NCBI GenBank assembly: GCA_041937185.1
Contig: CP166621.1
Coordinates: 2,196,571-2,260,570 of the forward strand
DNA length: 64,000 nt
Origin: Leptolyngbya sp. BL-A-14
GTDB lineage: Bacteria; Cyanobacteriota; Cyanobacteriia; Leptolyngbyales; Leptolyngbyaceae
Direction: 5' to 3'
Shown here: piece after piece, positions 4,746-51,057 of the stretch
Position numbering within the stretch: position 1 is the first letter of the stretch
Layout: each line of letters starts with the position of its first letter
Made by a program: the position numbers and the translations under genes
The notes under the pieces: generated by a model
Seen by the model: only the letters and a program-made list of their open reading frames with translations
The model's database searches: none
What the model was told of the DNA's origin: nothing

Positions 4746-4759
4746 CCCGTCCTTCGTCG

Positions 4760-6482: not shown

Positions 6483-6671
6483 CTTTGGGAAGTTTGTATT
6501 CGATATCCAAACGGTCAGGAACGCGCCTTGCGCTCTTACAAAGACCGGGAAATAGCGCTCAAACGTATTGATGCTATTTATTCAGAAGGTTATCCCCTGC
6601 ACGTTGCGTACATTGTACGACCCGCACAAGAGATCGCCTTTGGCGGACAATTGGCGGTAGCCAGCATCTAG
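6483..6671 (+). CDS. small hypothetical protein (about 62 aa)
   Basis: Internal ATG of ORF 6315..6671, which lies in a roughly 1-kb gene-poor region; no motif; speculative. Confidence 0.2.
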   Translation, partial: LWEVCIRYPNGQERALRSYKDREIALKRIDAIYSEGYPLHVAYIVRPAQEIAFGGQLAVASI

Positions 6672-6867
6672 CAGAAGCACGTATTACGTAAAGAGGCAAG
6701 TTGAGCGAGACGTTAGCCGTTCATATCGCTTTGAACGCAAATTACCGCTAATCAATCTCTACCCGTTACTTGCCTCCTGATCGTTCTATAGTTTGCAACG
6801 ATTGAAGATGAAATCATTGGCTGTTGCAAGCACACATTCATTGAAGGCGGCTGAAGCGCAAAGCTGG

Positions 6868-7416
6868 CTAAACCGTCATAATGTCTTTTTCTTTGTCAGC
6901 CAAAACTTCGTCTACTTTGGCGATGTATTTATCAGTCAGTTTTTGAATTTTGTCCTGCAAATCGCGAGCTTCATCTTCAGGCAGTTCGCTATTTTTCTCT
7001 TGCTTTCGCACACTATCTACCGCATCCCGGCGGATGTTGCGGATCGATACTTTACCTTCTTCGGCATATTTTGCTGCCATTTTGACCAGCTCTTTCCGCC
7101 GATCGTTCGTTAAAGGTGGAATATTGAGACGAATTGTTGAGCCATCGTTATTAGGGGTTAACCCAATATCCGATAGAGAGATCGCTTTCTCAATTAAGCT
7201 CAAGCTACTGCGGTCAAAAGGCTGCACCGTAATGGTTGAGGCATCAGGCGTATTGATGTTTGCAAGCGACTTGAGTGGTGTGGGTGCTCCGTAATACTCA
7301 ACCTGCACCCGATCGAGAATCGAGGCATTCGCTCGGCCAGTCCGAATGGTATTAAACGATCTCTGCGTGGCTTCAATCGCCTTCCGCATGTGTTCTTCAA
7401 CGTCAACTAACTTCAC
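6868..7416 (-). CDS. frr: ribosome recycling factor
   Basis: Conserved RRF sequence ([20 protein letters not shown] ... RNIRRDA); likely GTG start at 7416 preceded by a GGAGG Shine-Dalgarno sequence; overlaps the pyrH stop by 14 nt. Confidence 0.9.
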
Positions 7417-8131
7417 AAGAACCTCCGACAAGCGTTCCAATTTGTTCGCCCGCAACGGCTCGACGTACATTTCCTTTCACGGAAAGGTCAAACACGATGA
7501 TCGGGATATTGTTGTCCTTACATAAGGATATCGCAGTACTGTCCATCACCCGTAGATCCTGGGTGAGAATATGTCCATAGGTAAGGGTTTTGTAGCGGCG
7601 CGCCTCAGGGTTCTTGCGGGGGTCAGAATCGTAAACACCATCGACTTTGGTTGCTTTGAACAACACATCAGCACCAATTTCAGCGGCTCGTAGTGCTGCG
7701 GTCGTATCGGTTGTAAAAAAGGGATTGCCGGAGCCTGCGCCAAAAATGACGACCCGTCCTTTTTCTAGATGGCGGATGGCGCGTCGCCGGATATACGGTT
7801 CAGCGACTTCTTGCATTGAAATAGCTGTTTGAACCCGCGTAGGAACACCAATTTGCTCCAGTGCATCTTGAAGGGTCATGGCGTTCATGACGGTTGCGAT
7901 CATCCCAATATAGTCGGCGGTAGCGCGATCCATGCCTGCGGCAGCGCCTTTGACTCCTCGGAAGATATTGCCGCCACCGACGACGATCGCCACCTGTACT
8001 CCGGTTGCAATCACGTCGGCAACTTCTTGAGCAATGTCTTGCACAATGTTGGCATCAATTCCGTAGGAAAGCTCACCCATGAGGGCTTCACCGCTTAATT
8101 TCAGCACGACTCGCTGGTAAGTGACTCCCAT
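7403..8131 (-). CDS. pyrH: UMP kinase
   Basis: 242 aa; canonical UMP kinase sequence ([11 protein letters not shown] ... GGGNIFRG ... VDGVYDSDP); classic pyrH-frr gene order. Confidence 0.92.
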
Positions 8132-8337
8132 GTGGTGCTATTTCTCTTACTCCAGGTTGCTTTCAACCATAAAGATACTCCTTAGTGAAGAGATTCGTCC
8201 ACCTTGATTACAGATCAGGAAAGTGCGCTAAAAGTAGCTTGACGGATTGCGAGTGAGGCAAAAAGTAGCTGTTATGGCAAAGGCAGCGTACTGTTCCCTT
8301 GCTTCAACGGGATTCTTTGTGGCTAAAGCTTGAACGA

Positions 8338-8883
8338 TTAAAGATGCCATTTGACCGAGCAGCCGACAGGTTCCGTAGAGGTGGGTCGAATGGGAGCATT
8401 GATCAAAATCTGGGCGATCGCGTCTCGAAGATACGTCACTCGCACAGAATCGGGATCATTTGGGCTATCATCCACCGAGCCGCTGTAGCACAGCACGCCA
8501 TCTTGATTTAGGAGAAAAACGTGCGGAGTTTTCTCTGCGCCAAAGCTTTGGGCAACTTCTTGCGTCACATCCCGCAAGTAGGGAAAGTTGAGTTGATGCT
8601 CGGTTGCAAACCGCTTCATGTTCTCAAAGCTGTCATCTGGGTAACGATCGGCATCATTCGAGTTAATCCCAATCAGCGTTACGCTCTGATCTTGGAAATC
8701 TGCCTGGATCTGTTTGAGGCGATCGAGGTGCCGATGTACGTAGGGGCAGTGATTGCACATAAACACAACCGCTACCGCGCGAAATTGCTCCAAATACCGT
8801 GCCAGATGATGCACAGAACCGTCAATCCCTGGAATTTCGAAGTCGGGAGCGTAACTGCCAATCACGGTACTCATTTTTTCCAT
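8338..8883 (-). CDS. thioredoxin-fold thiol-disulfide oxidoreductase (redoxin/TlpA-like)
   Basis: CNHCPY CxxC motif in a thioredoxin-like 181-aa protein. Confidence 0.6.
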   Translation of the reverse strand: MEKMSTVIGSYAPDFEIPGIDGSVHHLARYLEQFRAVAVVFMCNHCPYVHRHLDRLKQIQADFQDQSVTLIGINSNDADRYPDDSFENMKRFATEHQLNFPYLRDVTQEVAQSFGAEKTPHVFLLNQDGVLCYSGSVDDSPNDPDSVRVTYLRDAIAQILINAPIRPTSTEPVGCSVKWHL

Positions 8884-9133
8884 GAAACAGAATCCTGGTA
8901 GAGCAGAGAGGAAGGGGCAAGGGAAGTTTTTGGTTGCTAGTTGAGAAAGGGAAGCAGAGAGAGGACGTTTTGAGCTTTGAGTTGAGGCAGTTTTTAGTGG
9001 TTGGTTTTTAGTTTTTAGGACTGGAACAAGCGCTGCTTTTCTCTCCTTCTAACAACTAACAACTAACAACCAAAAACCCTTCTGCCCTCTGCCTCCTGCC
9101 TTCTTCTAGCAACTAGCAACCCAAAACGAACAA
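8884..9133. repeat. composite STRR-like repeat element with conserved AGCGCT core
   Basis: The whole 250-bp spacer is heptamer runs (GTTTTTA, AACAACT, CCTCTGC) around the core GGAACAAGCGCTGCTTTTCTCTCCTTCTAA. Confidence 0.8.
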
Positions 9134-10045
9134 CTACATCCAGTTTTGTGCGATCGCCTGGTATCCAATTAGTTTATAGACCAATTTCGCTGCCGTAAAC
9201 TCTGACACCACAGAATCGGTAATGGGAGCCAACTCCATCACATCGCACCCGATGACCTGATGAGCCGCGAAGATACGTTGAATGAAGGTAAGCAGGCTAT
9301 ACCAGTTCAGGCCACCTGGTTCAGGGGTGCCAACTCCAGGAATTAGGGTAGGATCAATCCCGTCGAGGTCGATCGTGATAAAGACTTTCTCAGTTTTGAT
9401 ACTGGCAACGGCACGATCGATCCAGTCAGGCTGTATAACAATTTCCCGTGCTCGAAAGACAGCGAGTTGCTTCTCTTTAATCAAATCGGCTTCTTCTTTG
9501 CAAATGCTGCGAATGCCTACCTGAACCGTGGGCAACCCCATATCCACGATCCGTCGCATCACACAGGCGTGGTTGTGAATTGAGCCTTCGTATTCGTGAC
9601 GCAAATCGCCATGAGCATCAACCTGCACAACGGTGAAGGACTCCCCTGGATTCGCTTGCCGATACGCCTCGACAATGCCCGTTGTAATACTGTGTTCACC
9701 ACCCAGCGAGATAACAAATTTGCCGTCTGAGGCAAGCTTAAACACCGTTTCCTGCGTTGCGCGAAGCATTGCTTCAGAGGAAACTTTCTGACCGTTACGA
9801 GTATCGGCGATCGCATCGTGCGTATAGATACCCACCGGCCAAAGTTCGCGATCGAGTTCCTCGTCGTAATACTCGACTTGCTGCGACGCATCGAGAATGG
9901 CATCGGGGCCATGCTCACAGCCACGTCGATAAGTGGTAGTGGCTTCGTAAGGGATCGGCAGGATCACAACGTTAGCCTTGTCATAGGCCGCCGCGACATC
10001 CGGCCCTAAAAACGGTAGTGAAGAAACAGACGTTTGCACCAGCAT
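9134..10045 (-). CDS. speB: agmatinase / arginase-family ureohydrolase
   Basis: Arginase-fold Mn-binding motifs (GGEHSIT, VQVDAHGDL, ITIDLDGIDP); 303 aa. Confidence 0.8.
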   Translation of the reverse strand: MLVQTSVSSLPFLGPDVAAAYDKANVVILPIPYEATTTYRRGCEHGPDAILDASQQVEYYDEELDRELWPVGIYTHDAIADTRNGQKVSSEAMLRATQETVFKLASDGKFVISLGGEHSITTGIVEAYRQANPGESFTVVQVDAHGDLRHEYEGSIHNHACVMRRIVDMGLPTVQVGIRSICKEEADLIKEKQLAVFRAREIVIQPDWIDRAVASIKTEKVFITIDLDGIDPTLIPGVGTPEPGGLNWYSLLTFIQRIFAAHQVIGCDVMELAPITDSVVSEFTAAKLVYKLIGYQAIAQNWM

Positions 10046-10172
10046 GACAGACCCGATTTAAGCAACACCTGATCCTGGCACATTCTTCCCACGATCGACC
10101 ACTGGCAAGACATCTATAATGGAGCGATCGTGTTTCAATCAAATTCTTAATGGTAACACGCTGGCGTGTAAA

Positions 10173-10676
10173 ATGTCTAATCAAGGTGAAAAGAAACCGA
10201 GCGGAAGCAAATATCAGCCCTTGTTAGATGCCTTACGTCGAAGTGATCAACTCAAGGTCACGCTCACCTTTAGCACCATCGAAGCCTTGCTGGGTGAAAG
10301 CCTGCCTCCTTCTGCTCGTAGTAAGCGTGGGTGGTGGAGCAATCGCAGCAAGGGCGCATTACAAGCCACGGCCTGGATGGCAGCAGGCTATCTGGTGGAG
10401 ACGATCGACCTGGAGGGTGAGCAAGTTACCTTTACAAAACCGCCAGAGGTTTACCGTGTGCGGTGCATTGACGACACCCTGCAGTGGAACAGCGAGTTGA
10501 TTCGGGCTTTACGGTTGCACATGGGCTTGACCCAGGCAGGCATGGCGAAAGAATTAGGCGTCCGGCAACAAACGGTAAGCGAGTGGGAAAAGGGTATTTA
10601 CGCCCCAACCCGCGCCAGTTCAAAACATTTGACGTTAGTCGCAGAAAAAGCGGCGTTTCGCTATGAGATTTATTGA
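10173..10676 (+). CDS. XRE-family helix-turn-helix transcriptional regulator with N-terminal domain of unknown function
   Basis: C-terminal HTH (LRLHMGLTQAGMAKELGVRQQTVSEWEKG); start chosen at internal ATG 10173. Confidence 0.6.
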   Translation: MSNQGEKKPSGSKYQPLLDALRRSDQLKVTLTFSTIEALLGESLPPSARSKRGWWSNRSKGALQATAWMAAGYLVETIDLEGEQVTFTKPPEVYRVRCIDDTLQWNSELIRALRLHMGLTQAGMAKELGVRQQTVSEWEKGIYAPTRASSKHLTLVAEKAAFRYEIY

Positions 10677-10854
10677 AGCGCTATTCAGATCTTCCCAAAG
10701 ACATTGTTGCTCCGGTAGAGCGGCTTCGGATGGGGATCTGGTGTAGGGTCATGCCTGAAGTGGAATAGAAACAATTGCATTGGCGCTGTAGGAGCGATCG
10801 CGCTTAAACTGGGGGTAATAACGCAAGCACCCTCCCGATTGAAGAAATCCCAGC

Positions 10855-11922
10855 ATGCAAGTCCTTTTTAACGTCATCAGACAAGACAAGACCTCGACCC
10901 CGAAGGTTGAAACCTTTAAGCTCGATGTTGATCCCGGCAGCACTATCTTAGACTGCTTAAATCGCATCAAATGGGAGCAGGACGGCACGCTGGCGTTTCG
11001 CAAAAATTGCCGCAACACAATCTGTGGTAGCTGCTCAATTCGCATCAATGGTCGCTCTGCTCTGGCCTGTAAAGAAAATGTCGGCAGTGAACTTGCCCGC
11101 TTGCAGCAAGCCATGCCTGCCAAACTAGCAGATGCCCCAACCCCTGACGCTGAAAGCATACCCACCATCACCCTGGCACCCATGGGCAACATGCCAGTGA
11201 TTAAGGATCTGGTGGTAGACATGCACAGCTTTTGGAACAATCTCAAGGCGATCGATCCCTACGTCAGCACCGCTGCCCGACAGGTTCCAGAACGTGAGTT
11301 TTTGCAAACCCCGGAGGAGCGAGCGAAACTCAATCAGACAGGCAATTGCATCCTTTGTGGTGCTTGCTATTCCGAATGTAACGCCTACGAAGTGAATCCC
11401 AACTTTGTGGGACCGCATGCACTTGCCAAAGCGTATCGGATGGTCGCTGACTCACGTGACGAAAAAACAGAGGCACGGTTAGAAAAATACGACCACGGCA
11501 CAGATGGTGTTTGGGGCTGCACACGCTGCTACTACTGCAATTCTGTCTGCCCGATGGAAGTTGCGCCTCTCGATCAAATCAGCAAAATTAAAGGCGAAAT
11601 TCTAGACTTCAAGGATGCCCAGTCCAGTCGTTCGATTCGTCACCGTAAAACACTTATTGAATTGGTCAAGCAAGGTGGTTGGATTGATGAGCGCCTATTT
11701 GGCCTCAAAGTGGTCGGCAATTCCTTCCGCGATCTAAGGGGACTCGCAAGTTTGGGTCCTCTGGGGTTACGCATGATCGCAAAGGGCAAATTTCCGCTCA
11801 GTTTCGAGCCGTCTGAGGGTGCCGCTACTGTACGATCGCTCATTGACGCTGTACAAACCTTAGAAGCCTCTCAAGTGCAGCTTGAAACCCTTGCTGAAAC
11901 GCGTGAACCTGTTGGCGGTTAA
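10855..11922 (+). CDS. sdhB: succinate dehydrogenase / fumarate reductase iron-sulfur subunit
   Basis: Three Fe-S cysteine clusters (CGSCSIRINGRSALAC; CILCGACYSEC; CTRCYYCNSVCP); 355 aa with a C-terminal extension. Confidence 0.85.
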   Translation: MQVLFNVIRQDKTSTPKVETFKLDVDPGSTILDCLNRIKWEQDGTLAFRKNCRNTICGSCSIRINGRSALACKENVGSELARLQQAMPAKLADAPTPDAESIPTITLAPMGNMPVIKDLVVDMHSFWNNLKAIDPYVSTAARQVPEREFLQTPEERAKLNQTGNCILCGACYSECNAYEVNPNFVGPHALAKAYRMVADSRDEKTEARLEKYDHGTDGVWGCTRCYYCNSVCPMEVAPLDQISKIKGEILDFKDAQSSRSIRHRKTLIELVKQGGWIDERLFGLKVVGNSFRDLRGLASLGPLGLRMIAKGKFPLSFEPSEGAATVRSLIDAVQTLEASQVQLETLAETREPVGG

Positions 11923-11946
11923 TCCCGTAGCGTGTCTTATGAGTCG

Positions 11947-12471
11947 CTAACGGTTCATTGACGAATCCGGTAGAGCATCTAATGGCTGTCCATCCCGGTT
12001 GTACAGCACCACATCCCACTGACCATTAACGCTGGACTCAAACGCAATTGTGTCACCATCTGCCGTGATGGTAGGATTTCGCACTTCTGCTCTCACGTTT
12101 TCGGTGAGGTTGCGAAGCTGTTGCGTGTCACGGTTGTACAGGTAAATACCCGATCGCCCCTCGCGAGAACCTGTAAACACAATATAACGACCATTTTCTG
12201 AGATACCAGGGCTGGAGACAATCATGTCGATCGCGTTCAATCCTGGCAAATCCACCAGGTTGTGAATCACCATGTCGTAAAGATAAAGATTCTGACTGCC
12301 GCTGCGATCAGACACAAACACGATATAGCGACCCGAAATACGAGGTTTCAGGTCAGAAAAATTACTGTTTAGACTGCGACCACCTGGATCAAAGGGAAAA
12401 TTGACCAATTGTGGGCCACAGCCACTCAAAACACTAGCTAGAAGCAGAATTAGGAGCAGGCGAAGCTTCAC
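11947..12471 (-). CDS. TolB-like PD40 beta-propeller lipoprotein
   Basis: Lipobox LSGC after a signal peptide; PD40/WD40-like repeats; likely GTG start at 12471, because the upstream part of the ORF is a translated heptamer array. Confidence 0.55.
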   Translation of the reverse strand: MKLRLLLILLLASVLSGCGPQLVNFPFDPGGRSLNSNFSDLKPRISGRYIVFVSDRSGSQNLYLYDMVIHNLVDLPGLNAIDMIVSSPGISENGRYIVFTGSREGRSGIYLYNRDTQQLRNLTENVRAEVRNPTITADGDTIAFESSVNGQWDVVLYNRDGQPLDALPDSSMNR

Positions 12472-12612
12472 AGAAACGTGGGGGCTAGGGAAGTAAAGCA
12501 GGGGATGCGGAGGGAGCAAGGGGAGCGGAGGAAGGAATTTTAAGCGCATTACGCCGCTACATCAGGGAGTTTGGAGTTCTCTCCGTCCTTCTACCGTCCA
12601 CCTTGAGCACCT

Positions 12613-13233
12613 TTAAGGTGCAGATGAAAGCCGCGATCGCATATTGTCAGGCAAGTCTGATTCTACATTGGGACCGCGATCCATCACTTCAATATCCCAC
12701 TGCCCCCGCACAGCCGTCTCAAAAGCAACGTAGCGACCGTCAGGGCTAATGCTCGGATTGCGAAACCAACCGCGATAGTTAGCGGTGAGTACTTGCGGCT
12801 GCTGGAGCGCTCGATCGTAGAGTTCAATTTCAGGCCGCACACTGTCGCTCGTTACATAAACAATGTAGCGCCCTGTATAGCTAAGGCTGGGAGATTCTGC
12901 GATCGCGTTCTGACGGTTAAGGCGAGGGAGCATCACCATCTGCCGTTGCGTCCGATCGTAAAGCAAAATACCACGATTGCCATCACGGTTGGAGACAAGC
13001 GCCAAAAAACGACCGTCTCCACTAAGGGCGGGTTGCTCATCATTATGACGACTGTCGAATGCCGCAGAAACCGTTGGTGGTAGCTCCTCTTGCGCGCAAG
13101 CAACCAGCAGCAAAACAACAACAATGAGGCGAATACTACCTTTAAAAAACTCGCCTCTCCCCAAAAACCTGCGAAACACTACCGCAGCCATGTTCAAAAG
13201 CATTCTTGAACTAGCTGGTTCTCTCGTACACAA
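12613..13233 (-). CDS. TolB-like PD40 beta-propeller lipoprotein (tandem paralog)
   Basis: Signal peptide with LVAC lipobox; PD40 repeat segments (SPDGRYVAFE); exact start uncertain. Confidence 0.55.
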   Translation of the reverse strand: MCTREPASSRMLLNMAAVVFRRFLGRGEFFKGSIRLIVVVLLLVACAQEELPPTVSAAFDSRHNDEQPALSGDGRFLALVSNRDGNRGILLYDRTQRQMVMLPRLNRQNAIAESPSLSYTGRYIVYVTSDSVRPEIELYDRALQQPQVLTANYRGWFRNPSISPDGRYVAFETAVRGQWDIEVMDRGPNVESDLPDNMRSRLSSAP

Positions 13234-15184: not shown

Positions 15185-16549
15185 TCACCCTTTCGCGTCC
15201 TGCTCTTTTTGCATCATTTGTTCGACGAAGTTCGTATAGATGTCGCCTTTTTGGAACTCTGGAGTATCCAGAATGCGTTGATGAAAACCGATCGTGGTGG
15301 GTAAGCCTGTGACAGCACATTCACGAAGCGCGCGGCGCATGCGTCGGATGGCGGCTGGGCGATCACTGCCCCAAACAATTAGCTTGCCAATCAACGAGTC
15401 GTAGTAGGGCGGAATTTCGTAATCGGTATAAACATGGGAGTCCATGCGTACGCCAGGACCACTGGGCGGAAGGTAGCCACTGATGCGTCCAGGGTTGGGG
15501 CGGAAGTTGTGATCAGGGTCTTCGGCATTGATGCGGCATTCGATCGCGTGTCCCCGCAATACGACCTCGTCTTGCGTGATGCTGAGCGCTTCACCCTGCG
15601 CGATCCGAATTTGCTCTGCGATTAAATCTAGACCTGTGATCATTTCTGTCACGGGATGCTCTACCTGAATTCGGGTATTCATCTCCATGAAGTAAAATTC
15701 GCCAGACTGGTCAAGCAAAAATTCAACTGTACCGGCACCGACATAGTTGATTGATTTCGCTGCCATGACGGCGGCAGTCCCCATTTTTTCGCGCAGGATG
15801 GGTGTTAAGGCTGGGCTGGGTGCTTCTTCTAACAATTTTTGGTGGCGACGCTGAATCGAACATTCTCGCTCACCCAGATGGATCACGTTGCCATGCATAT
15901 CGGCAAGAATTTGAAACTCGATGTGGCGAGGCTTTTGCACAAACTTTTCAAGGTAAACACCGGGGTTGCCAAACGCTGCTTCGGCTTCTCCCTGGGCTGC
16001 TGCAAAAAGCTTCGCTAAATCGCTCTCATCGCGAACCAGTCGCATACCTCGTCCACCACCACCGGCGGTTGCTTTGATGATGATTGGGTAACCAATTTTA
16101 TGCGCGATCGCCCGTGCTTCGGCTTCGTCGGTCAGTAAGCCTGCACTGCCAGGCACCGTTGGCACACCGACTTGCTGCATCGTCTTTTTGGCTGTTGATT
16201 TATCGCCCATCGCTCGAATTGAGTCAGGCGAGGGGCCAATAAAGGCGATCTGGTGATCGGCACAAATCTCGGCAAAGCGGGCGTTTTCTGCCAGAAAGCC
16301 ATAGCCAGGATGAATGGCGGTTGCATTGCGAGTCAGTGCCGCCGCAATAATGTTAGGAATGTTTAGATAACTCTTACTGCTGGGTGGTTCCCCAATACAA
16401 ACTGCTTCGTCAGCAAGCTGTACATGGAGCGAATGGCGATCGACCGTCGAATGAACCGCAACTGTCGCAATCCCCATCTCCTCACAGGTTCGAAGAATCC
16501 GAAGGGCAATTTCACCACGGTTAGCAATCAAAACTTTTGAAAACTGCAT
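15185..16549 (-). CDS. accC: acetyl-CoA carboxylase biotin carboxylase subunit
   Basis: 454 aa; ATP-grasp biotin carboxylase sequence ([14 protein letters not shown] ... GGGGRGMR ... [14 protein letters not shown]). Confidence 0.93.
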
Positions 16550-16589
16550 CTCTATAAACTTTGGTTCTGTATTGAGTAGAATAGACGCT

Positions 16590-16800
16590 TCTGTGGGGCA
16601 CTGGAAGAGGAGAGTGGGGAGTAGGGAGTAGGGAGTAGGGAAGAAATTTGAGTTTTGAATTGTAAGTAGGCTGTGAAGTTCGGGCGTTCGGAGTCAGAAG
16701 ACCTCTGAGTTTGAGACGATTGATCATGCAGGTTTGCCTAACTCTGTTTCCTACTTTTTCCCTTTGCCTTTCCTTCGCAAACAACCAACAACCAACAACT
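16590..16800. repeat. STRR-like heptamer repeat cluster
   Basis: GGGAGTA x4, GAGTTTT, CAACAAC runs. Confidence 0.75.
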
Positions 16801-16801
16801 A

Positions 16802-17515
16802 CTACTGCTCCCCGCACTTACAGCTATCCTTCAGTTGGTGCATCACAGCAGGGGCAAGTCCGCCCCAGAGAGGAGTGTTAACGCCAGCCGATCGCAATCC
16901 TTCAGCCGTCCAGGAGTTGCAAGTTTTGAACATGGAGTAGTGTCCGGTGGCAGCGTAGAAGCTACTATCGCCATCACGTCCACTGCTAATCCGTTCTTGC
17001 TCCTGACCGTTAGTCTGAAAGGAGGCTTCGAGAAAGTGCATAAGCTTCAAGTAATGAGCTTGATCCAGGCTGATGCACCGAAGGGTTTCGTTGGGGTAGT
17101 GGGGAACAGAGGTGTGTCCTTTGACGAAGAGAGCGGCGGCGTTTTGCAGCAGAAGCGATCGCAGTGCGCTAGAAATGCTGATCTTATCCCAGGATGGTGT
17201 TTCAACGTAAAAGATGCGATCGCCCCAGCCAAACTGGAGATACCGATATGTTTCTGGTGCGCTTTTACCCAACGTGGCTAAGTTGAGGTGCTGGTTCCAG
17301 TCGAAGGCATCGTTGCGGACGGGCACAAAAAGATTTGTGTGCATCATGTCGCCCGATACATAGATTCTAAATTTGCAGTCTGCCGGGGGCGGCGACAGCT
17401 GCCACTGTCGAGGAGTGAGAGCGGCGATCGCAAAGAGGGCGAGCGTTCCTGCAATGCCACAAAATCCGTATAACCCTGCCTGTCCAACCCGCCTCCAAAC
17501 GCCCCTGTCGTTCAT
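16802..17515 (-). CDS. conserved hypothetical protein (possibly TIGR02117/DUF2459 family)
   Basis: 237-aa ORF with an N-terminal signal/TM segment; family assignment from memory only. Confidence 0.5.
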   Translation of the reverse strand: MNDRGVWRRVGQAGLYGFCGIAGTLALFAIAALTPRQWQLSPPPADCKFRIYVSGDMMHTNLFVPVRNDAFDWNQHLNLATLGKSAPETYRYLQFGWGDRIFYVETPSWDKISISSALRSLLLQNAAALFVKGHTSVPHYPNETLRCISLDQAHYLKLMHFLEASFQTNGQEQERISSGRDGDSSFYAATGHYSMFKTCNSWTAEGLRSAGVNTPLWGGLAPAVMHQLKDSCKCGEQ

Positions 17516-17785
17516 TACTGCGCCAAACGTGTTGAGTTAACCTACCATTGAGCAAACGAGGCTTATGATTAAGCGACGTTAGACTGCGTATTGCATCAGA
17601 AATATGATCTAATTGGCACTATCTTCTGACTGCTCTTGCCAGCTTGCTTGCAACCCGTTCAGAAGGGTAAGGCAGTCCATTAACGTCTATCCTACGCTGA
17701 TTCGCGATCGCATGATTGCACGCCTGACCAGTAGGGTGTTTGTATAGCCTGTGTTCTCTAGCCTGTTATTTTTTGTGGCCTGACT

Positions 17786-19312
17786 ATGGTGAAACAACGG
17801 CTTTTTCTTGGATCGGTTGCCTTTGGTCTTAGCTTTGGCATTAGCTTCCTGACAGGTCGTGATCTGGGTCGGGCGATCGCGTCAGGGGCAACGACAGCGG
17901 TGGTGTCAGTCGCGGCGGCGGCAGTCGTCGATCGACAGTACTACCAGCAGGCACATACACGCATCGCCGACCTTAAAAGCCATATTCACGCTTTGCAGCA
18001 ACGGCGCGCCGAAGCCTATCAAGCGTATATGCAGCTTGAAGCGGAGAGAGAACAGTTGGCAGCCAGTTTCCAAACCCTTGCGTTTGAGCCCCATCAGTCC
18101 CAATTTCCCCCTCAGCCCCAGTTTGGCAGCGTACAGCTTCCCAGAGCGCTTCCTGCGGCACGTAAAGCGCTGAGTTGGGATTTATCAGCTTCGGCTCAGG
18201 TTGAGCCCTCGATCGTCGTGAAGCCTTATGACCTGCCAACAGAGATTCCTGCTGAACGGCAATCGCCCTGGAATCAATCAGAAGGCGGGCCATCAGAGGG
18301 AGCAACGCCGCAGCAAGTCTTTTCTGAAGCAACTGCAACCAAGCAAAAAATTGAAGCCAGTCTTGCGGCACTTCAAGCTGAACTGAGCCAGATCAAAGGG
18401 CAAATTACCGACCATCGCCAAACGCGGGAAAAGCTCTCGCGGGATGTTGCCAATATCAGGGAAGAAAAACGTCAACTGGAAGCAACCGCCAAAACCCTGA
18501 AGGGCGAAGTGGAGGAATTAGAAACCTGTCGGGTTGAGCTAGAGCAGTTTTTGACTGATGCCGAGGCGAAGAAGCGAGAGCTAGAAACAGGTTCAAATCC
18601 CCTTCAAGAAGCCTTTAAGCAATTACAAACCCAGGTTGTTGCCTTACAAGAAGAACTGCGCGTTTTGGAAGCTCAAATTCTCGATCGTCGCAGCCAAAAA
18701 GAAGCGCTCGAACAACAGTTAGCCATGCTTGCCGCTGTTCCGTTAGATGCGCAAGGAGCCTTACAGCTTGAGTTAAACGGACAGCAACGAAGCGATAACA
18801 CAGCCACGAACGGCAATGGCAAGAACGCTAAGACTAACGATCCAATGGCGATCGCTCTTCAAACTGAGCGTTCAAAGCCAACCCCTCCATCCAAGCAACC
18901 TGTATTATCCCGCAAGCCTGCTGTCATCACAAAGCCAACAGACGAGCCCTCACTGTCGCGATCGACCCAGGCTGGAACAGCCACGCTTCCATCCAAGGCG
19001 GTTACTGCTGACCCAGCAACTGACCTGCCTCAGGAATGGGCAGACCTGATCATGCAATTGCCAGAATATGAGCTACAAGCGCTGAAGGTCATTGCCGAGC
19101 AGAACAACCCTGCTGCCGCACTTAAACAGCTTGCGGAAGATAATTTGACCATGCCAGAGCTATTGATTGACTCGATCAATGAACATGCCCTGGAAACGAT
19201 CGGCGACCTTCTGATTGATGCCAACGCTGGTGCAGGCTCAGCGACGATCGTCCGTGAGCATCTCAAGCAGGTGAAAAAGATCCTGAGAACGTATGACAAT
19301 CTGGCTCACTGA
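17786..19312 (+). CDS. membrane-anchored coiled-coil protein
   Basis: 508 aa; N-terminal TM segment, long heptad-like Q/E/L/A-rich coiled-coil region, globular C-terminus. Confidence 0.55.
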   Translation: MVKQRLFLGSVAFGLSFGISFLTGRDLGRAIASGATTAVVSVAAAAVVDRQYYQQAHTRIADLKSHIHALQQRRAEAYQAYMQLEAEREQLAASFQTLAFEPHQSQFPPQPQFGSVQLPRALPAARKALSWDLSASAQVEPSIVVKPYDLPTEIPAERQSPWNQSEGGPSEGATPQQVFSEATATKQKIEASLAALQAELSQIKGQITDHRQTREKLSRDVANIREEKRQLEATAKTLKGEVEELETCRVELEQFLTDAEAKKRELETGSNPLQEAFKQLQTQVVALQEELRVLEAQILDRRSQKEALEQQLAMLAAVPLDAQGALQLELNGQQRSDNTATNGNGKNAKTNDPMAIALQTERSKPTPPSKQPVLSRKPAVITKPTDEPSLSRSTQAGTATLPSKAVTADPATDLPQEWADLIMQLPEYELQALKVIAEQNNPAAALKQLAEDNLTMPELLIDSINEHALETIGDLLIDANAGAGSATIVREHLKQVKKILRTYDNLAH

Positions 19313-20421
19313 ATACACCTACCTTGAGTCAGGTTAGCCTCGCTTAGTGCTTAGTAGAAGATGATAAAGTGGTTTTTAGGAGATGGTTTAAGCCATAGAC
19401 AACAAAGAAATTGATGAGTCCGTTTGTCGGCTCATTATTGTGTAGTGGGAAATCTTTGCTCTCTGCGATTGGTAGAATCCATTCCCATCCTTTAAAGTCG
19501 GCTTTGAAGACATTGACTAACCCAATTGGTACAAATCTGGTCTTTCCGTCTGCTTTCCCCAAATTCTCAACTTGTGTAAAGATACTCTGTCAAAGAAGCC
19601 AACATAGTTTAACTCGCTTTTGACTTCTTGGATTTACAGAAATAGTTGTGTTGAAGGGGATCAACAAGGCACCGACAAGATGATGTGCGCTTTCCATTCC
19701 CCCAACGGCTCGTCATTTTTCCTCTTCTAGCACTAAAATAACGCGATGTGCTTGCTAGACTTAAACAGCTCTAGACTTAAACAGTTACAGTTAGTTCCTC
19801 AAACTGCGAAGGATTACTACTACAGCGGTTGAGCTATTGATAGGCGATGTGGTCAGCAGTTTACGCTCACTTTGCTTGTGAAGATTTAGTTGCACACCGC
19901 GTGATATACTTCGGTTCTTAATCGTTAGTTCTATTTGATAAAAGCTGTATACTCATTAGCGTTTCTCCGATGGATGAGATAGAGGTGGGAGGTGCAGGGC
20001 AGCGATTTGAGCCTCTGGGTGTACCTCACGCTAGCCGGAAACGCTATACACTTTTCTAAGCTTGTGTCTTTCAAAATGAGAAACCTGATTCATGAGATTT
20101 TGAGAGTTCCACCCTCTAATTTAAGATTTCTGTAAAAATAAGCTGCTTAAAGAAAAGTTCTAAATAGCTGTCTTAGGGCAGTTACTGCAAGGGATTTGCT
20201 TACTCTATTTTGCAAGTTGTTTAGTACCAACCAGTTACTAATTATAGTGGTAAACATATTGACTACAATTGTGGGTTATTTAGCTATGCATGCAACATAA
20301 CTAGAATTCAGAGCTTTAGCAGTTCCAACTGCTCACTTTTTATCTTTAAAGAGGTCTATTGTTCGTACTCAAGCCTTACCCTAGTTATGTGAAGTAATGA
20401 TTAGAAAAGTCGGGTCCTAGA

Positions 20422-21465
20422 ATGCTAGATAATAAAGTTCAGGGTGAGCCTAAATTAAAGGACAGCCAAAACAAAAAAAGAAAGCTAGTGATTCTCATTC
20501 CTATATTTAACGATTGGGAAGCACTAGAGGAGCTGTTGCTATTAATTGACGAAATCGGTACTCCGCAAGAATATAATTTGGAGATTCTTATAGTTGATGA
20601 TTACTCAACGAAACCTTTACCTGAATCACTAGCCTATCGAAAGTATCGGCAACTTCAAACCGTTAATATCCTTCGGTTACGTCGAAACCTTGGGCACCAG
20701 AGAGCCATTGCAGTTGGTTTATGTTACATACACGACAATTTAAGTTGTAGTGTAGTTGTCGTGATGGATGGTGATGGAGAAGACAATCCCTTCGAAATAG
20801 TGCGATTACTGGAAGCCCTCAACAGAAGTGTTGGTGATAGCATTATTTTTGCAAAGCGGAGTAAGCGGTCTGAAAACTGTACATTTAGATTATTTTATTT
20901 TGCGTATAAAATAATTTATTGGTTGCTTACAGGGCGAGATAGCAGCGTTGGCAATTTCAGTTTACTGCCGGGTTCCTTGTTAAGAAATATCGTGGTTATT
21001 TCAGAACTTTGGAATCATTATTCCGCAAGTATTTATCGTTCTAAAATCCCTTATATTGAAGTCAATGTTCCTCGATCAAAGCGATTGGCTGGACAACCTA
21101 AAATGAGCTTGGTATCCCTTGTGACCCATGGCTTGAGTTCGATAGCGGTATATGGGGATGTTGTTGGTACGAGAATCTTACTGAGTACGTCGTTTCTATC
21201 AGTCTTTCTTTTATTTCTACTGCTTATTGTTTTACTCATTAAGTTGTTTACAAATTGGGGAATTCCAGGGTGGACTACTTACGTTTCAGGCTTACTTATT
21301 CTAGCACTTTTCCAAGTGATCTTAATTGGAACTGTTTTCAGTATGATTATCTTGTCAGCCCGTAACAGTTCTAACTTCCTTCCAATTCGAGACTACAAAT
21401 ATTACGTTGATGGATTCTATACGGTGATTGCATGGAAGAGCTTACATACTCTGGAAAAGAATTGA
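20422..21465 (+). CDS. GT2 polyprenyl-phosphate glycosyltransferase (GtrB/DPM1-like) with C-terminal TM pair
   Basis: GT-A fold motifs (ILIPIFNDWE, IVDDYS, MDGDGED as the DxD motif, RNLGHQRAIAVG) plus two C-terminal TM helices typical of GtrB/ArnC-type enzymes; low-GC island. Confidence 0.8.
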   Translation: MLDNKVQGEPKLKDSQNKKRKLVILIPIFNDWEALEELLLLIDEIGTPQEYNLEILIVDDYSTKPLPESLAYRKYRQLQTVNILRLRRNLGHQRAIAVGLCYIHDNLSCSVVVVMDGDGEDNPFEIVRLLEALNRSVGDSIIFAKRSKRSENCTFRLFYFAYKIIYWLLTGRDSSVGNFSLLPGSLLRNIVVISELWNHYSASIYRSKIPYIEVNVPRSKRLAGQPKMSLVSLVTHGLSSIAVYGDVVGTRILLSTSFLSVFLLFLLLIVLLIKLFTNWGIPGWTTYVSGLLILALFQVILIGTVFSMIILSARNSSNFLPIRDYKYYVDGFYTVIAWKSLHTLEKN

Positions 21466-22145
21466 ATTTGTTTGCTGAGGCAAAGAATTGGAAAAGCTAT
21501 GTCAGGAATCACTTAAAGAACTATATCAAAGGAGATGTTTTAGAAGTTGGAGCAGGGATAGGAAGTAATACTTGTTCGCTTTCTTCCTGTTCCTACAGAA
21601 AATGGTTGTGTTTAGAGCCAGATCCTAACCTTTTCCAGAGTTTGGAGACAGAGATCAGTTCTTGCAGTATTGTTAACTGCTACGCTCAAAAAGGAACCAT
21701 TGATACATTAACTAACGAACAGATATTTGATTCCATTCTATATCTGGATGTTTTGGAACATATTTATGAGGATAGAGAAGAAGTTGCAAAGGTGATTAAG
21801 CATCTTAAAGCCAACGGGAACTTAATTATTTTAGCTCCTGCGCATCAATGGTTATTTACACCGTTTGATTCGGCTATTGGTCATTACCGTCGTTACAGTA
21901 AACTAACACTTGAGGCAGTTTTACCAGACAGTGTTGAAGTAACAAGGCTCATTTATATAGATAGCGTTGGCTTGCTAGCCAGTTTGGCAAATAAGTTACT
22001 TCTTAGGCAAAGCCAACCAACTCTACGGCAAATCAAGGTATGGGACAAAGTAATGGTACCTGTATCCAGTAAAACTGATGCGATTTTGGGATACCAACTT
22101 GGCAAAACAGTTTTACTGGTTGGAAAGAAAAAGGTTAGTAAATGA
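21432..22145 (+). CDS. class I SAM-dependent methyltransferase
   Basis: SAM-binding motif I VLEVGAGIGSNT, acidic motif II (LYLDVLEH); 34-nt overlap with the upstream GT2 gene suggests co-translation. Confidence 0.75.
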   Translation: MEELTYSGKELNLFAEAKNWKSYVRNHLKNYIKGDVLEVGAGIGSNTCSLSSCSYRKWLCLEPDPNLFQSLETEISSCSIVNCYAQKGTIDTLTNEQIFDSILYLDVLEHIYEDREEVAKVIKHLKANGNLIILAPAHQWLFTPFDSAIGHYRRYSKLTLEAVLPDSVEVTRLIYIDSVGLLASLANKLLLRQSQPTLRQIKVWDKVMVPVSSKTDAILGYQLGKTVLLVGKKKVSK

Positions 22146-22489
22146 TCTTAAAACTTCACCTTAGTGGTATTTTCCCATCTCAACCAGATCGCTATCCTTA
22201 GAGATCTTCTCAGCCTGTGATTATAAAATCCAAGCCTTTGCTCTACGCTCAGTTGGTATCTACTTGAATTTTATTTGTGAATGTTTTTTGTCTTAGGCCT
22301 TTGGTCTAAAAACAACATTTTATTAGAAAAATCAATTAAACCGCTTAAAAATTTTAGTAAGTACATTGGTCATGTTCACAAAAAATTAAGATATACCCCC
22401 TATTATTTATACAGTTGAAAAAAAGATTGGTTTTGATTGAAATTAACTACGGAGTTTAGCCAACCCACTTTTGAAGGTAAAAAGAGCCC

Positions 22490-24316
22490 ATGAAGTTGAG
22501 AGAATTTTCATTCCGTCAAGAGGTATTATTTGCCTCCATTCATAAGCTTATTGCTATCTGTATAGCCACTATTCCCATATTTTTACTTATACCTTTACTG
22601 GTAAAGAATGCAATCAATATGCCTTACTTGGATGAATGGGATACTCCAGGTATTGCACTGTTAAAGTTTGCTAGTAATACTCTTTCTTTTGGTGACCTAA
22701 TTGCTCAAGCTAACGAAAGCCGACCTCTATTTCCACGTTTAATATTTCTTGGGATGGCATTTTTGACAGGTTGGGATACAAGATATGAATTTTTGGTTAT
22801 CTTTCTTGTAGCCTGCTTGATCAGTTATCAAATATATCGTCTTAGTCAAATTACCATTCGAGGTTCTGAGTACCAGCGGCTTTTTTTAATGCTGCTTGCT
22901 AATCTACTTATTTTTAGCCCAGTTCAATCTGACAACTGGCTTTGGGGAATTCAGCTCATTACTTTTATGCCAATCACCTGTATTACAGCAGGGCTGCTTG
23001 TTTCTTACTCTAACTTGGGAACCAAGCTAAAGACACTGATTTTGCTAGGTTTGTGTACCATTAGCACTTATTCTTATGCTAATGGAATGCTTGCCTGGCT
23101 ACTTTTATTTCCAAGTGCTATCTTCACTTCTAGATTTTTCCAAAATCGAGATCTAAAAGATCAGCGATGGCTAATGTTTGGAGGGGTGATAGGTTGCGTT
23201 TCGAATGTAGTTGTTTACTTCCACAACTACAAGCAGCCTCCAGTTGCAAGCTTTTCAGAATCTTTAATTCACCCGCTTGAGGCTTTAAAATTCTTCTTAA
23301 TCTTCTTAGGTAACCCCTTAAAGAATGGTCAAATAGAAGCTTCCCAACAACTAGGAACTTCTCTGACTGTTGGCTTAGTTCTCTTTACCTTATTTAGTTG
23401 TGTCTTACTTTACCTACTGTCGAATAGGAAGGACAAAGCATTACTTTACTATTCAACACCCTGGGTCGTAATTGGAGGCTACTCTTGTGCAAGTGGGCTA
23501 ATTACAACGGTAGGCAGGCTCGGGTTGGGCTTAGAAGCAGCGCTCTCTTCACGATACCCAACATTCTCACTATATCTTCTTGTTTCTTTGATTTATCTCT
23601 TAGCGATTGTTGCTGAAAATATAATTCAGAACTATTACCTTCATGAAATCAAGAAAGTACGTATCATTCGAGGCGTTCTTGTTTCTTTAACAGCTTCTTT
23701 GATTGTACTTCATACTTCTACTTACTTGTCGCACGCTAAAACTATGGCACTGGACCATCGTTATCGACTTCATGCTAAAGCTTGCCTGTTATTTATAAAT
23801 TTTGTTGATGAGAAGCCGACTTTCGAAGCGCGCATTTATCCCTATTATGAAATTGGCAAACCTAAAATCATTCAGTTGAACCAAAATCATTTTTTGAAGC
23901 CAGCGTTGGTCGAAAGTCCTAATCTCTCTATCATTGAAGGCAAAAGAAAACAGTATCCTTCAGAAGCCTATGGTTTTTTGGACTCAATTACTCAAACCAG
24001 TGAATCAGAACTTTTGCTTTCCGGTTGGGCAGTCTTTCCCGACCGGAAAAAGCCTGCCGATGCTGTGATTTTGGCATACGAAACACCAAACAGCGCGCCG
24101 AAAGCGTTTGCGATCGCTCCTGTCATTGAAAAATCAAAGGATATTGTCAGAGTGTTCAAAGATCAAGCTTATCAGAATGTTCGTTGGAGTAAGTCTTTGG
24201 CAGTTAACAAGCTACCTGAAGGGGATATTAAAGTGAGTGCTTGGGCATTTGATACTGAAGCAAAGCAAGCATTTCGATTGGCGGGTTCAAAGAGCTTGAG
24301 TAAGCCACTTAAGTAA
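22490..24316 (+). CDS. polytopic membrane protein, candidate GT-C-type glycosyltransferase
   Basis: 608 aa; about 11-13 TM helices over the first 400 aa; YLDEWD acidic motif in the first predicted loop; roughly 200-aa soluble C-terminal domain. Confidence 0.6.
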   Translation: MKLREFSFRQEVLFASIHKLIAICIATIPIFLLIPLLVKNAINMPYLDEWDTPGIALLKFASNTLSFGDLIAQANESRPLFPRLIFLGMAFLTGWDTRYEFLVIFLVACLISYQIYRLSQITIRGSEYQRLFLMLLANLLIFSPVQSDNWLWGIQLITFMPITCITAGLLVSYSNLGTKLKTLILLGLCTISTYSYANGMLAWLLLFPSAIFTSRFFQNRDLKDQRWLMFGGVIGCVSNVVVYFHNYKQPPVASFSESLIHPLEALKFFLIFLGNPLKNGQIEASQQLGTSLTVGLVLFTLFSCVLLYLLSNRKDKALLYYSTPWVVIGGYSCASGLITTVGRLGLGLEAALSSRYPTFSLYLLVSLIYLLAIVAENIIQNYYLHEIKKVRIIRGVLVSLTASLIVLHTSTYLSHAKTMALDHRYRLHAKACLLFINFVDEKPTFEARIYPYYEIGKPKIIQLNQNHFLKPALVESPNLSIIEGKRKQYPSEAYGFLDSITQTSESELLLSGWAVFPDRKKPADAVILAYETPNSAPKAFAIAPVIEKSKDIVRVFKDQAYQNVRWSKSLAVNKLPEGDIKVSAWAFDTEAKQAFRLAGSKSLSKPLK

Positions 24317-24433
24317 CTGTTTACCAAGAGCACAATGAGCTGGAATAGCGTTGAGTTGTCGTGCCTGACTACCAAAAGAGTAATGAACGATTGCTTTAGG
24401 GTATGAGCCAGCCTTGTTTAAGCTAACTTCACA

Positions 24434-33889: not shown

Positions 33890-35662
33890 GGTTCTTTTCT
33901 GAATTTGGTGATCAAGGTTTGGAGTGATATTTGGCTCGGCAGGAACCGTTTCAACTGGCTAAAAGCACCCTTTTTTGCAAAAGGTCAAAACCAGCCCGAC
34001 CGTACATTTGCCGCTTGAGCATCTTCAGCCGATTGATTTGCCCTTCCACTTGTCCATTGCTCACTGCTAACGTCACGCCTGCTTTGACCGCCTCATAATC
34101 CTCCTGCAAACTCTTGGCAAAGTTTTGAAACTGTTTGATCTTGCTGCAACTGGCTTGCTCCAGCCAGGGGTCAAGCTGCTGGGGCGACCGTTGTCGAACC
34201 AACGCCGCAAATTGCTGAGCGAGAGTAATCGCTGTTGCTAACGCAGGATGCTGCTGTAACTCGATAAGCAACGGTTCATCCTCAATGGCTTGCTGCTGGG
34301 ATGGTTTGAGTACCAGCCAGGCAGCGCGACGGGCACTCAAAGGGGGTTGCTTTGCTTCGCTGCCGGCAAGAGCTGGTCCTCGCCCCTCTGAGGTGCTTAA
34401 CTGTTGCCGTTGCGCTTGACGCAGTTGATGGGTATATTTGGCAACGGTTTGATAGGTCCCCTGATAGCCCTGCTGCTGAATGTCCTCAAACAATTGCTTC
34501 GTCTGACGTTGCCCAGTGTGCCATTGCTCGTATAAGTAGGATTTGTAGGGAGTCAGGATGCTAGGACGGGAACGCCGCCGTGGCGATGGCTGCCATTCGG
34601 GAAAACTGGGAGCCGCCAAGTAGGTAAAAACAGTCCGTTCACCCATGCCTAAATGATGTGCAATATCGAGTACCTGGTAGCCCTGCTGGCGCAGTTTGTG
34701 CACCTGCTCGTAGTTCGCCAATCGTCTTGCCCGCCGTTGCTGCGCTCGTTGTTGCTGCGCCGTTGGCGGTTTGGGTGGAACTACCAGCGGTTTGCCTAAG
34801 GCTCGATGATAAGCGAGGTCTACGACTTTGAGCGCATCACTTTGCGTGGCTAGAAAACGCTCTAGGACTTCCGCCAGATTTTGCAGCAGATGGAAGCGGT
34901 CAGCGACCTGAATCGCTGCCGGTGCGCCTTGCGTCATGCCTTGCTTGTACGCCTTGGAGCGATCTCGCGACAGCACTTGCACACCAGGATGCTGTTGGAG
35001 CCAGGCGGCTAAAGTGTTCGCTTCTCGATCTTTGAGCAACGCGATCGGGTGGTGCTGATCGAGGTCAACCAGGATCGTGCCGTAGCGTTGCCCCTTGCGA
35101 AAGGCGAAATCATCGACGCCTAAAGTTTTAGGGGTCGTCATTGTGGGTAAGGTTTGTCGTGCCACGAGTTGCAACAACGGATTGAGGCTAACCCTGTGCC
35201 CCAACCGTCGGCTCAAGCGGGTGCCGGCCGCGCCGCCTAAGGCGAGTCCAATGGCGGTCAAACAGGCTGCCAAACGGCAGGTGCGTCTTGCCCACGGCAG
35301 GGTGACTTGGGGTAAGCGCTCGGTGAAGATGCGCCGTTGGCAGCCAGCCTTGAGGCAGAAAAACTTCCGCACTTGCAGGCGCAGGGTAACGGTGTAATCG
35401 ATACAGGGCAGATCTTGTAGGGTTCGCTCATAGCGACTGTGAATGCGATGGGTTGCTGACTGGCACAGCGGACAGTGGGCAGCAGATTGGCTGCTTGAAA
35501 CCGTAAGAGTTAGTTGTTTATCGTTCGTAGCGAAGGACCAGTTTTCGAGTCGAAGTAATGCCTGATTCGGCAACAGATGGTGCAGGAAATCCACTACTGC
35601 TTAAGCGTGAAATAGGTACACCTTGATCCTGCCGTAAGATCACCAAATTCAGAAAAGAACCT
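33890..35662 (-). mobile_element. ISL3-family insertion sequence, apparently intact
   Basis: 24-bp perfect terminal inverted repeats GGTTCTTTTCTGAATTTGGTGATC (33890..33913 and reverse-complement 35639..35662); 8-bp direct repeat TGAAGTAA at 33882..33889 and 35663..35670; a single transposase ORF. Confidence 0.85.
33951..35594 (-). CDS. ISL3 family transposase
   Basis: N-terminal zinc-finger (CPLCQ ... HSRYER), DDE region, and ISL3-typical C-terminus NGQVEGQINRLKMLKRQMYGRAGFDLLQKRVLLAS. Confidence 0.9.
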   Translation of the reverse strand: MDFLHHLLPNQALLRLENWSFATNDKQLTLTVSSSQSAAHCPLCQSATHRIHSRYERTLQDLPCIDYTVTLRLQVRKFFCLKAGCQRRIFTERLPQVTLPWARRTCRLAACLTAIGLALGGAAGTRLSRRLGHRVSLNPLLQLVARQTLPTMTTPKTLGVDDFAFRKGQRYGTILVDLDQHHPIALLKDREANTLAAWLQQHPGVQVLSRDRSKAYKQGMTQGAPAAIQVADRFHLLQNLAEVLERFLATQSDALKVVDLAYHRALGKPLVVPPKPPTAQQQRAQQRRARRLANYEQVHKLRQQGYQVLDIAHHLGMGERTVFTYLAAPSFPEWQPSPRRRSRPSILTPYKSYLYEQWHTGQRQTKQLFEDIQQQGYQGTYQTVAKYTHQLRQAQRQQLSTSEGRGPALAGSEAKQPPLSARRAAWLVLKPSQQQAIEDEPLLIELQQHPALATAITLAQQFAALVRQRSPQQLDPWLEQASCSKIKQFQNFAKSLQEDYEAVKAGVTLAVSNGQVEGQINRLKMLKRQMYGRAGFDLLQKRVLLAS

Positions 35663-51052: not shown

Positions 51053-51057
51053 AACTG

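Follow-up and report, generated by a model that had tools for sequence, protein, structure and literature searches.

A GT-C-fold membrane protein of an unnamed family, encoded in a low-GC cassette of Leptolyngbya sp. BL-A-14, is a candidate for the last step of a surface-glycan glycosylation pathway

The DNA considered here (the window) is a stretch of 64,000 nucleotides from Leptolyngbya sp. BL-A-14. Within it lies a short island of low G+C (GC) content that consists of three genes on one strand and the leader that precedes them. The genes encode, in order, a glycosyltransferase of family GT2, an S-adenosylmethionine (SAM)-dependent methyltransferase, and a 608-residue polytopic protein, which is the subject of this report. 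An earlier annotation made from the DNA letters alone (the sequence-only reading) had put this protein forward as a candidate GT-C glycosyltransferase, and our analysis supports that proposal: the protein has a fold match to GT-C enzymes, and an aspartate that is invariant in its family, D48, follows the first helix. We regard it as nearly certain that the protein is a GT-C-fold enzyme. We further consider it likely that it is the last, inner-membrane enzyme of a Gtr/Arn-style extracytoplasmic glycosylation pathway that arrived as a three-gene cassette. The features of the island are collected in Table 1. The GT-C gene had been described as lying directly downstream of the GT2 gene; this is incorrect, because the methyltransferase gene and an AT-rich gap intervene.

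Table 1. Features of the island and of the GT-C protein, numbered by position in the window (aa, amino acids; TM, transmembrane).
Feature	Position	Strand	Details and basis
ORF-free low-GC leader, upstream island edge (1.1 kb)	19313..20421	.	no open reading frame (ORF) >=80 aa, only short overlapping ORFs
GtrB/ArnC-type polyprenyl-phosphate glycosyltransferase (GT2; predicted), 347 aa	20422..21465	+	Pfam Glycos_transf_2, E 4.5e-12
Class I SAM-dependent methyltransferase, 237 aa, soluble	21432..22145	+	Pfam Methyltransf_12/11/25/23
AT-rich intergenic gap, methyltransferase to GT-C	22146..22489	.	345 bp; sequence reading
GT-C-fold membrane glycosyltransferase of unnamed family (candidate)	22490..24316	+	608 aa, ATG start
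Membrane domain, aa 17-434	22538..23791	+	~11 TM helices, N-in/C-out as best-fitting model; AlphaFold model helices, family loop charges
Loop-1 signature P45-Y-L-D48-E-W50-D51	22622..22642	+	D48 proposed catalytic base; family conservation
Second loop-1 signature Q73-x-N75-E76-x-R78	22706..22723	+	Q73 56/56; E76 and R78 55/56
R343 ... R355-Y356, predicted outside loop	23516..23557	+	R343 and Y356 56/56; R355 53/56 (K in the other 3)
fn3/Ig-like beta-sandwich, aa ~495-603	23972..24298	+	proposed acceptor-glycan-binding module; model, fold match

The GT-C gene has the limits and length that were first given for it; it lies on the + strand and starts with ATG. A first search of 5.8 billion proteins recovered 171 homologs, and an exhaustive profile search, with clustering at 50% identity, recovered 11,202 cluster representatives at E<=1e-3 (3,026 of them at E<=1e-30). 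Numbers of this kind show that the ORF is real and did not arise by chance. The first search also returned an identical (100%) entry, from Leptolyngbya sp. BL-A-14, under the name 'hypothetical protein ACAF41_10635'. Among the loci that we surveyed, most carriers of the family are filamentous cyanobacteria or Acidobacteriota.

Does this family already have a name? The sequence-only reading could not supply one, and neither could searches of Pfam, NCBIfam and the PDB. Pfam and NCBIfam gave no match with the protein itself, with any of 56 relatives aligned to it or with 10 others that are more divergent. Specifically, no hidden Markov model match placed any of these sequences in ArnT/PMT_2 (PF13231, GT83) or PMT (PF02366, GT39), and YfhO, EpsG, DUF2142, GT87, Arabinose_trans and similar families went unmatched at E<=1 among the 56 members and at E<=10 with four queries. 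Two relatives, P0029 and P0050, carry the UniProt name 'Glycosyltransferase RgtA/B/C/D-like domain-containing protein'. This automatic name was not reproduced with current Pfam, in which neither protein matched PMT, PMT_2 or any other GT-C model even at E<=10. The only Pfam near-matches among the relatives, DUF2231 and ACR_tran, had non-significant E-values. In the PDB, single-protein phmmer and profile searches found no membrane-protein relative. Annotated phages and plasmids yielded no homolog by tblastn, and a Foldseek search of viral models (BFVD) matched no named Gtr protein. The literature that we searched contained no description of the family, nor of a GT-C partner for a cyanobacterial GtrB.

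Homology to ArnT was examined separately and rejected. An hhalign comparison of the family profile with Escherichia coli ArnT gave a probability of 0.06 when ArnT was a single sequence and 0.13 when it was a shallow profile of 8 sequences (close enterobacterial orthologs, >=76% identical). The profile of a sister subfamily, introduced below, was likewise negative against ArnT.

We also made the structural comparison that the sequence-only reading had suggested. In an AlphaFold model, the membrane module of the protein superimposes on solved GT-C enzymes. The same model bears out the placement of the YLDEWD motif (aa 46-51, with DEWD at aa 48-51) in a loop after the first helix, which spans aa 17-40: D48 lies 8 residues and W50 10 residues past its end. 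The general architecture of many membrane helices followed by a soluble C-terminal part also stood, although the proposed extents did not: the helices, 11 to 13 in number, reach to about aa 434 and not about aa 400, and the C-terminal part is 174 residues long (aa 435-608) and not about 200. Foldseek matches of the model to transporters had very low probabilities and TM-scores, and a transporter identity was rejected.

To orient the protein in the membrane, we took K+R minus D+E as the net charge of every loop in the model and averaged it across family members. This gave +1.5 for the N-terminus and -1.8 for loop 1 (aa 41-79, which holds D48, W50, Q73, E76 and R78). With an 11-helix topology, in which the helix at aa 80-93 is assigned to loop 1, every inside loop is net positive, as the positive-inside rule expects, and the invariant polar residues Q146, W150, S195, N198, Y243, Y247, R343, R355 and Y356 all fall in outside loops. 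This charge pattern, together with the distribution of the polar residues, supports an orientation in which the active-site loop and the C-terminal domain are periplasmic.

Conservation was counted in an alignment of 56 family members. D48 and W50 are present in all of them, and P45 in 54. The acidic cluster to which the sequence-only reading had drawn attention is thus conserved in its first residue and not as a cluster: position 49 is glutamine in 43 of the 56 sequences, and position 51 is variable. DEWD is thus the form that the family signature, P-[FY]-x-D-[QDE]-W, takes in this protein's lineage. Known GT-C enzymes have their catalytic aspartate after the first transmembrane helix (PMC11127046), and we propose D48 as the catalytic base here. 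Q146 and N198 are further conserved polar residues. R343, R355 and Y356, which share a predicted outside loop, are candidate binders of the donor phosphate, by analogy to R349/Y350 of the GT136 enzyme ORF12 (PMC11127046).

A more distant view of the family came from an unusual relative. P0226 (1,215 aa) consists of two divergent copies of the family protein fused in tandem, and the motif is retained in both halves; the N-terminal half, though divergent, still reads P-I-F-D-Q-W and H-N-E-H-R. Searching with this half uncovered a sister subfamily (P0378-P0497) of about 626 residues in Verrucomicrobiota and Acidobacteriota. Pfam recognises no domain in its members, all of which are annotated as 'hypothetical' or 'uncharacterized membrane protein'. 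The profiles of the two subfamilies align over residues 29-350 (hhalign probability 99.3%, E 3.5e-20). Common to both are D48/W50, N75-E76-x-R78, W95-D96, E-N-x-L-W-G-x-Q (146-155), S195...G199, R343 and R355-Y356; the equivalents in the sister subfamily are D47/W49, which are invariant there, R328 and R339-Y340. Such shared residues point to the catalytic core. The C-terminal domains of the two subfamilies do not align. A conserved membrane module for donor binding and catalysis, joined to a variable module on the acceptor side, would be the pattern expected of GT-C enzymes.

What might the C-terminal domain do? Its invariant residues are G512-W513-A514, Y530, W566, W585 and D588, and relatives of about 730 residues hold the beta-sandwich twice in tandem, a duplication that indicates that it behaves as a module. 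In GT136 ORF12, EmbC and AftD, C-terminal carbohydrate-binding modules bind the acceptor polymer (PMC11127046). By analogy, our best inference is that the beta-sandwich may bind a glycan acceptor. In a search with the family profile, it also gave a weak match to the C-terminal domain of EfAmi1, an endolysin of an Enterococcus prophage (8C4D; E 0.13), a match that is suggestive and that we do not use as evidence of homology. The part of EfAmi1 that was matched is an unresolved, uncharacterised domain, putatively carbohydrate-binding. In the Foldseek search of BFVD, an Enterococcus phage endolysin was matched as well. Enterococcal walls contain rhamnopolysaccharide. A link between this endolysin likeness and the association of the GT-C family with rml genes, described below, is speculative.

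We then considered the partners of the GT-C gene. The GT2 protein matches solved structures over its full length: Synechocystis GtrB (sll0501, 5EKP; E 7e-14, aa 15-305), ArnC (9BHC/8VXH/9HWJ; 2e-9) and an archaeal DPMS (5MLZ). With E. coli ArnC it shares 24% identity along 275 residues (E 7e-13), its best NCBIfam matches are PgfS and ArnC (both under the cut-offs), and it ends in a two-helix anchor (aa 258-276 and 292-310). Because of these full-length GtrB/ArnC/DPMS matches and the two-helix anchor, we assign it as a polyprenyl-phosphate glycosyltransferase, the predicted maker of a lipid-linked sugar donor. The methyltransferase gene overlaps the stop codon of the GT2 gene by 34 nt; its product matched only generic methyltransferases in the PDB. 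The gap that separates the methyltransferase gene from the GT-C gene had no Rfam match and no terminator-like site, and a scan for promoters and terminators did no better than on shuffled sequence.

The island (19300-24350) coincides exactly with the three genes and their leader. Its GC content is 38.6%, compared with 51.6% in the rest of the window, and third-position GC is 34-35% in its genes as opposed to 50-63% in the flanking accC, ndhB and topA. At six other loci, too, the GC content of the cassette is 5-9 points lower than that of its flanks. At the edges of the island we found no integrase, no convincing direct or inverted flanking repeats and no tRNA gene (there is none in the window). 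In the reading that we favour, the compositional evidence marks the cassette as horizontally acquired. Within the leader, GC content falls from about 0.51 to 0.37-0.43, and no Rfam family was matched; this segment may hold a promoter or a remnant of the acquisition. It also contains a perfect 14-nt tandem direct repeat, CTAGACTTAAACAG x2, with 16-nt spacing (19755-19784). The island begins directly past the stop codon of a gene for a 508-residue coiled-coil protein with a TerB-C domain (17786-19312, +). Neither the island nor the other window ORFs that were scanned encode a flippase (GtrA or a small SMR/EamA protein), and the remainder of the window, as scanned, holds housekeeping genes and no polysaccharide cluster.

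To learn whether the GT-C gene keeps such company elsewhere, we surveyed 79 further genome loci, which with the window make 80. A PI-GT-type GT2 gene, defined as encoding 270-420 residues with a C-terminal transmembrane anchor, lies <=7 kb from the GT-C gene in 37 of the 80 and always on the same strand; it is upstream in 28 and <100 bp away in 17. At 16 loci, two or three GT-C paralogs stand in tandem near the same GT2 gene, an arrangement also seen with the serotype-specific Gtr enzymes. A homolog of the methyltransferase occurs <=7 kb from the GT-C gene in 11 of the 80, in varying gene order, and keeps its place between the two other genes in L001/L002, L004 and L007. The complete trio recurs in a metagenomic relative that is 67% identical, in Phormidium sp. 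LEGE 05292 (L004) and in Floridaenema (L007). In the last two, it is accompanied by additional GT-C paralogs, and rmlC-rmlD-rmlA, GT2 and GT4 genes come immediately after in an operon-like order. The Phormidium locus has a gtrA gene as well, and two proteins with FGE-sulfatase domains are encoded just 3' of its rml/glycosyltransferase cluster (16319-19584 of that locus).

Across the survey, rmlA/C/D were found in 9-11 of the 80 loci and gtrA in 3; 1 or 2 loci encode a small EamA protein. In Scytonema hofmannii, the GT-C homolog is preceded by genes for a Wzt ABC-transporter ATPase (Wzt_C), a coiled-coil methyltransferase, multi-domain GT2 proteins and a 314-residue GT2, and it is upstream of a gene for a 122-residue EamA-type protein that resembles ArnE/F. 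A UbiA or MATE gene was found neither in the window cassette nor in the seven related loci that were annotated. The homolog of Trichodesmium erythraeum IMS101 has no GT2 gene nearby and is flanked by genes for three GDSL/SGNH/AlgX-like proteins (2278-12240 of locus L065). Proteins of this type O-acetylate extracytoplasmic polysaccharides. Even in loci that lack a nearby GT2 gene, such as this one, the context is still glycan-related. Finally, in a member of the Pyrinomonadaceae, genes for a 257-residue GT2, an NAD-dependent epimerase/dehydratase and a DegT-family aminotransferase lie directly 3' of the homolog (9044-11928 of locus L078). The likeness of this set to arn suggests that the acidobacterial members use an amino-sugar donor.

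These observations can be assembled into a pathway. On the inner membrane's cytoplasmic side, the GT2 enzyme would charge undecaprenyl phosphate with a single sugar drawn from a nucleotide sugar, and a flippase encoded elsewhere in the genome would turn the product over. At the periplasmic face, the GT-C enzyme would bind the lipid-phosphate-sugar in a groove that loop 1 makes with the outer ends of the transmembrane helices, with R343, R355 and Y356 holding the donor phosphate. D48 of the P-x-x-D-x-W loop would then activate an acceptor hydroxyl, and the sugar would pass to a surface glycan that had already been exported. This acceptor, which the C-terminal beta-sandwich would hold, is most likely an O-antigen or exopolysaccharide that contains rhamnose. 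The co-transcribed methyltransferase probably O-methylates the transferred sugar or its product. We infer a polyprenyl-phosphate sugar as donor because a GtrB/ArnC-type GT2 is encoded in the same cassette and in 37 of the 80 loci. A glycan acceptor is favoured because related loci carry rml, Wzt, AlgX and GT4 genes; that the acceptor is specifically a polysaccharide is somewhat more likely than not. One could go further and suppose that the trio makes and transfers a methylated sugar, that the soluble methyltransferase acts on the undecaprenyl-phosphate sugar on the cytoplasmic side, before it is flipped, and that the GT-C enzyme founds a new CAZy family for O-methyl-sugar side chains on the rhamnose-rich surface glycans of cyanobacteria and acidobacteria. 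This elaboration is unlikely in our estimation, and we know of no described precedent for methylation of an undecaprenyl-phosphate sugar on the lipid.

Several alternatives to glycan decoration by the cassette deserve scrutiny. The GT-C enzyme could be a protein O-glycosyltransferase of the PMT/PgfM type that places the GT2-made sugar on Ser/Thr of exported pilins, S-layer or other cell-surface proteins. It has no MIR/PMT-type luminal domain and no PMT or PMT_2 match in Pfam, however; polysaccharide genes (rmlACD, Wzt with Wzt_C, GT4, AlgX) recur in the related loci, and the C-terminal beta-sandwich resembles modules of glycan-active enzymes. We therefore deem a protein acceptor unlikely. It is quite improbable that the enzyme is instead an ArnT-like lipid modifier, which would add the sugar to lipid A, the lipopolysaccharide core or another membrane glycolipid and so alter the outer membrane in charge or permeability. 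The enzyme is unrelated to ArnT in sequence, the latter has no binding module of the beta-sandwich kind, and the tandem paralogs and the linkage to rml and Wzt better fit the decoration of a polymer.

The GT-C fold might also serve another role, either as a polymerase or ligase whose substrates are oligosaccharides linked to lipid diphosphate, or as a non-catalytic scaffold like PIG-U/GAB1. An invariant aspartate after the first helix and invariant Arg/Tyr residues in outside loops, found in two subfamilies, argue for catalysis, and tight same-strand linkage to a monosaccharide-loading GtrB-type GT2 in 37 loci argues for a lipid-monophosphate sugar donor; we give this alternative very little weight. 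Lastly, the notion that the protein is a polytopic transporter or other membrane protein and no glycosyltransferase, its fold matches being generic helical-bundle artefacts, could appeal to the major facilitator superfamily and other transporters that Foldseek also returned and to the DUF2231 and ACR_tran near-matches, but it strikes us as extremely improbable.

We compared the enzyme with characterised systems. In architecture, GT136 ORF12 is the closest characterised enzyme; in the logic of the system, the Gtr and Arn pathways come nearest. ORF12 is the GT-C of a three-component pentofuranose side-chain system in Citrobacter youngae O1 (Kelly et al. 2024, PMC11127046). It showed no sequence similarity to the glycosyltransferase families then existing and was annotated as hypothetical; its essential residues are D31, E34 and Y35 after the first helix, H106, and R349/Y350, and its C-terminal Ig-like, beta-rich module binds the unmodified polysaccharide (PMC11127046). 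When our model is set against this published description, both proteins have about 11 transmembrane helices, a helical loop-1 domain with an aspartate, and a C-terminal Ig-like module. D31/E34/Y35 would correspond to D48/W50, and R349/Y350 to R355/Y356, a parallel that is striking by description. There are clear differences. The ORF12 system relies on a UbiA-type polyprenyl-phosphoribose synthase and a MATE/SMR flippase, whereas a GtrB/ArnC-type GT2 and a methyltransferase accompany the Leptolyngbya enzyme. ORF12 also has an EpsG-family match in CDD (PMC11127046), while the present family has no EpsG match in Pfam.

The Gtr systems of Shigella and Salmonella phages share with the present cassette a GtrB-type GT2 beside a polytopic GT-C, a small, mobile, low-GC format, and the ability of several variable GT-C paralogs to use one GT2. 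They differ in that the Leptolyngbya cassette has no gtrA (only the 3 loci mentioned above, of 80, have it) and no other flippase gene, and carries a methyltransferase gene in its middle. Moreover, its GT-C is larger (608 aa), ends in a beta-sandwich and had no homologs in the phage and plasmid collections searched. ArnC/ArnT (GT83, PMT_2) differs in the lack of detectable sequence similarity (the hhalign values of 0.06-0.13 given above), in the soluble C-terminal domain, which is of another kind, and in its target, the genomic context of the Leptolyngbya gene indicating a polysaccharide and not lipid A. The mycobacterial enzymes AftA, AftB, AftD, EmbA/B/C and PimE have no sequence relation to the protein and belong to another phylum with another cell envelope. 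They use decaprenyl-phosphate arabinose or mannose as donor, the synthesis of which follows another route.

The family is probably a new one for both CAZy and Pfam, within a known kind of system. The organisational twist of the cassette is its embedded methyltransferase; the biology is otherwise an expected variation on a known theme. Decoration of surface glycans with lipid-linked monosaccharides drives antigenic and phage-receptor diversity. To our knowledge, it has been studied almost exclusively in enteric pathogens, Gram-positive bacteria and mycobacteria. Because no Pfam or NCBIfam model covers the present branch of GT-C proteins and its members are called 'hypothetical' almost everywhere, it is invisible to routine annotation of the genomes of cyanobacteria and soil bacteria. 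That such a dark family exists is not in itself surprising, since most GT-C genes are annotated as hypothetical (PMC11127046). Once defined, it would become a new family in Pfam and CAZy and would supply candidate downstream GT-C enzymes for the GtrB-like enzymes of cyanobacteria; none has been described for the structurally characterised GtrB of Synechocystis. It would also offer a handle on surface-polysaccharide variation in cyanobacteria that form blooms and mats, Trichodesmium, Okeania and Microcoleus among them.

Other features of the window were noted in passing. Far from the cassette lies a second GT2 gene (56163-57398, -), whose 411-residue product (similar to Glycos_transf_2 and Glyco_transf_21) resembles lipid glucosyltransferases or processive GT2 enzymes. 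A 547-residue transposase of the ISL3 family (DDE_Tnp_ISL3 with a zinc ribbon) is encoded at 33951-35594 (-). At 49116-52783 (-), a gene for a 451-residue large serine recombinase (Resolvase, Recombinase, Zn_ribbon_recom) precedes same-strand ORFs of 194, 136 and 434 residues, the last with no Pfam match; this segment may be a small integrated element. A 747-residue ORF at 45125-47368 (+) had no Pfam match at E<=1e-5. Two tandem proteins of about 200 residues with PD40 (WD40-like beta-propeller) repeats are encoded at 11947-13233 (-). Finally, a 581-residue ORF at 42766-44511 (-) lies wholly antisense to the aconitase B gene (42214-44826, +) and is almost certainly a spurious shadow ORF.

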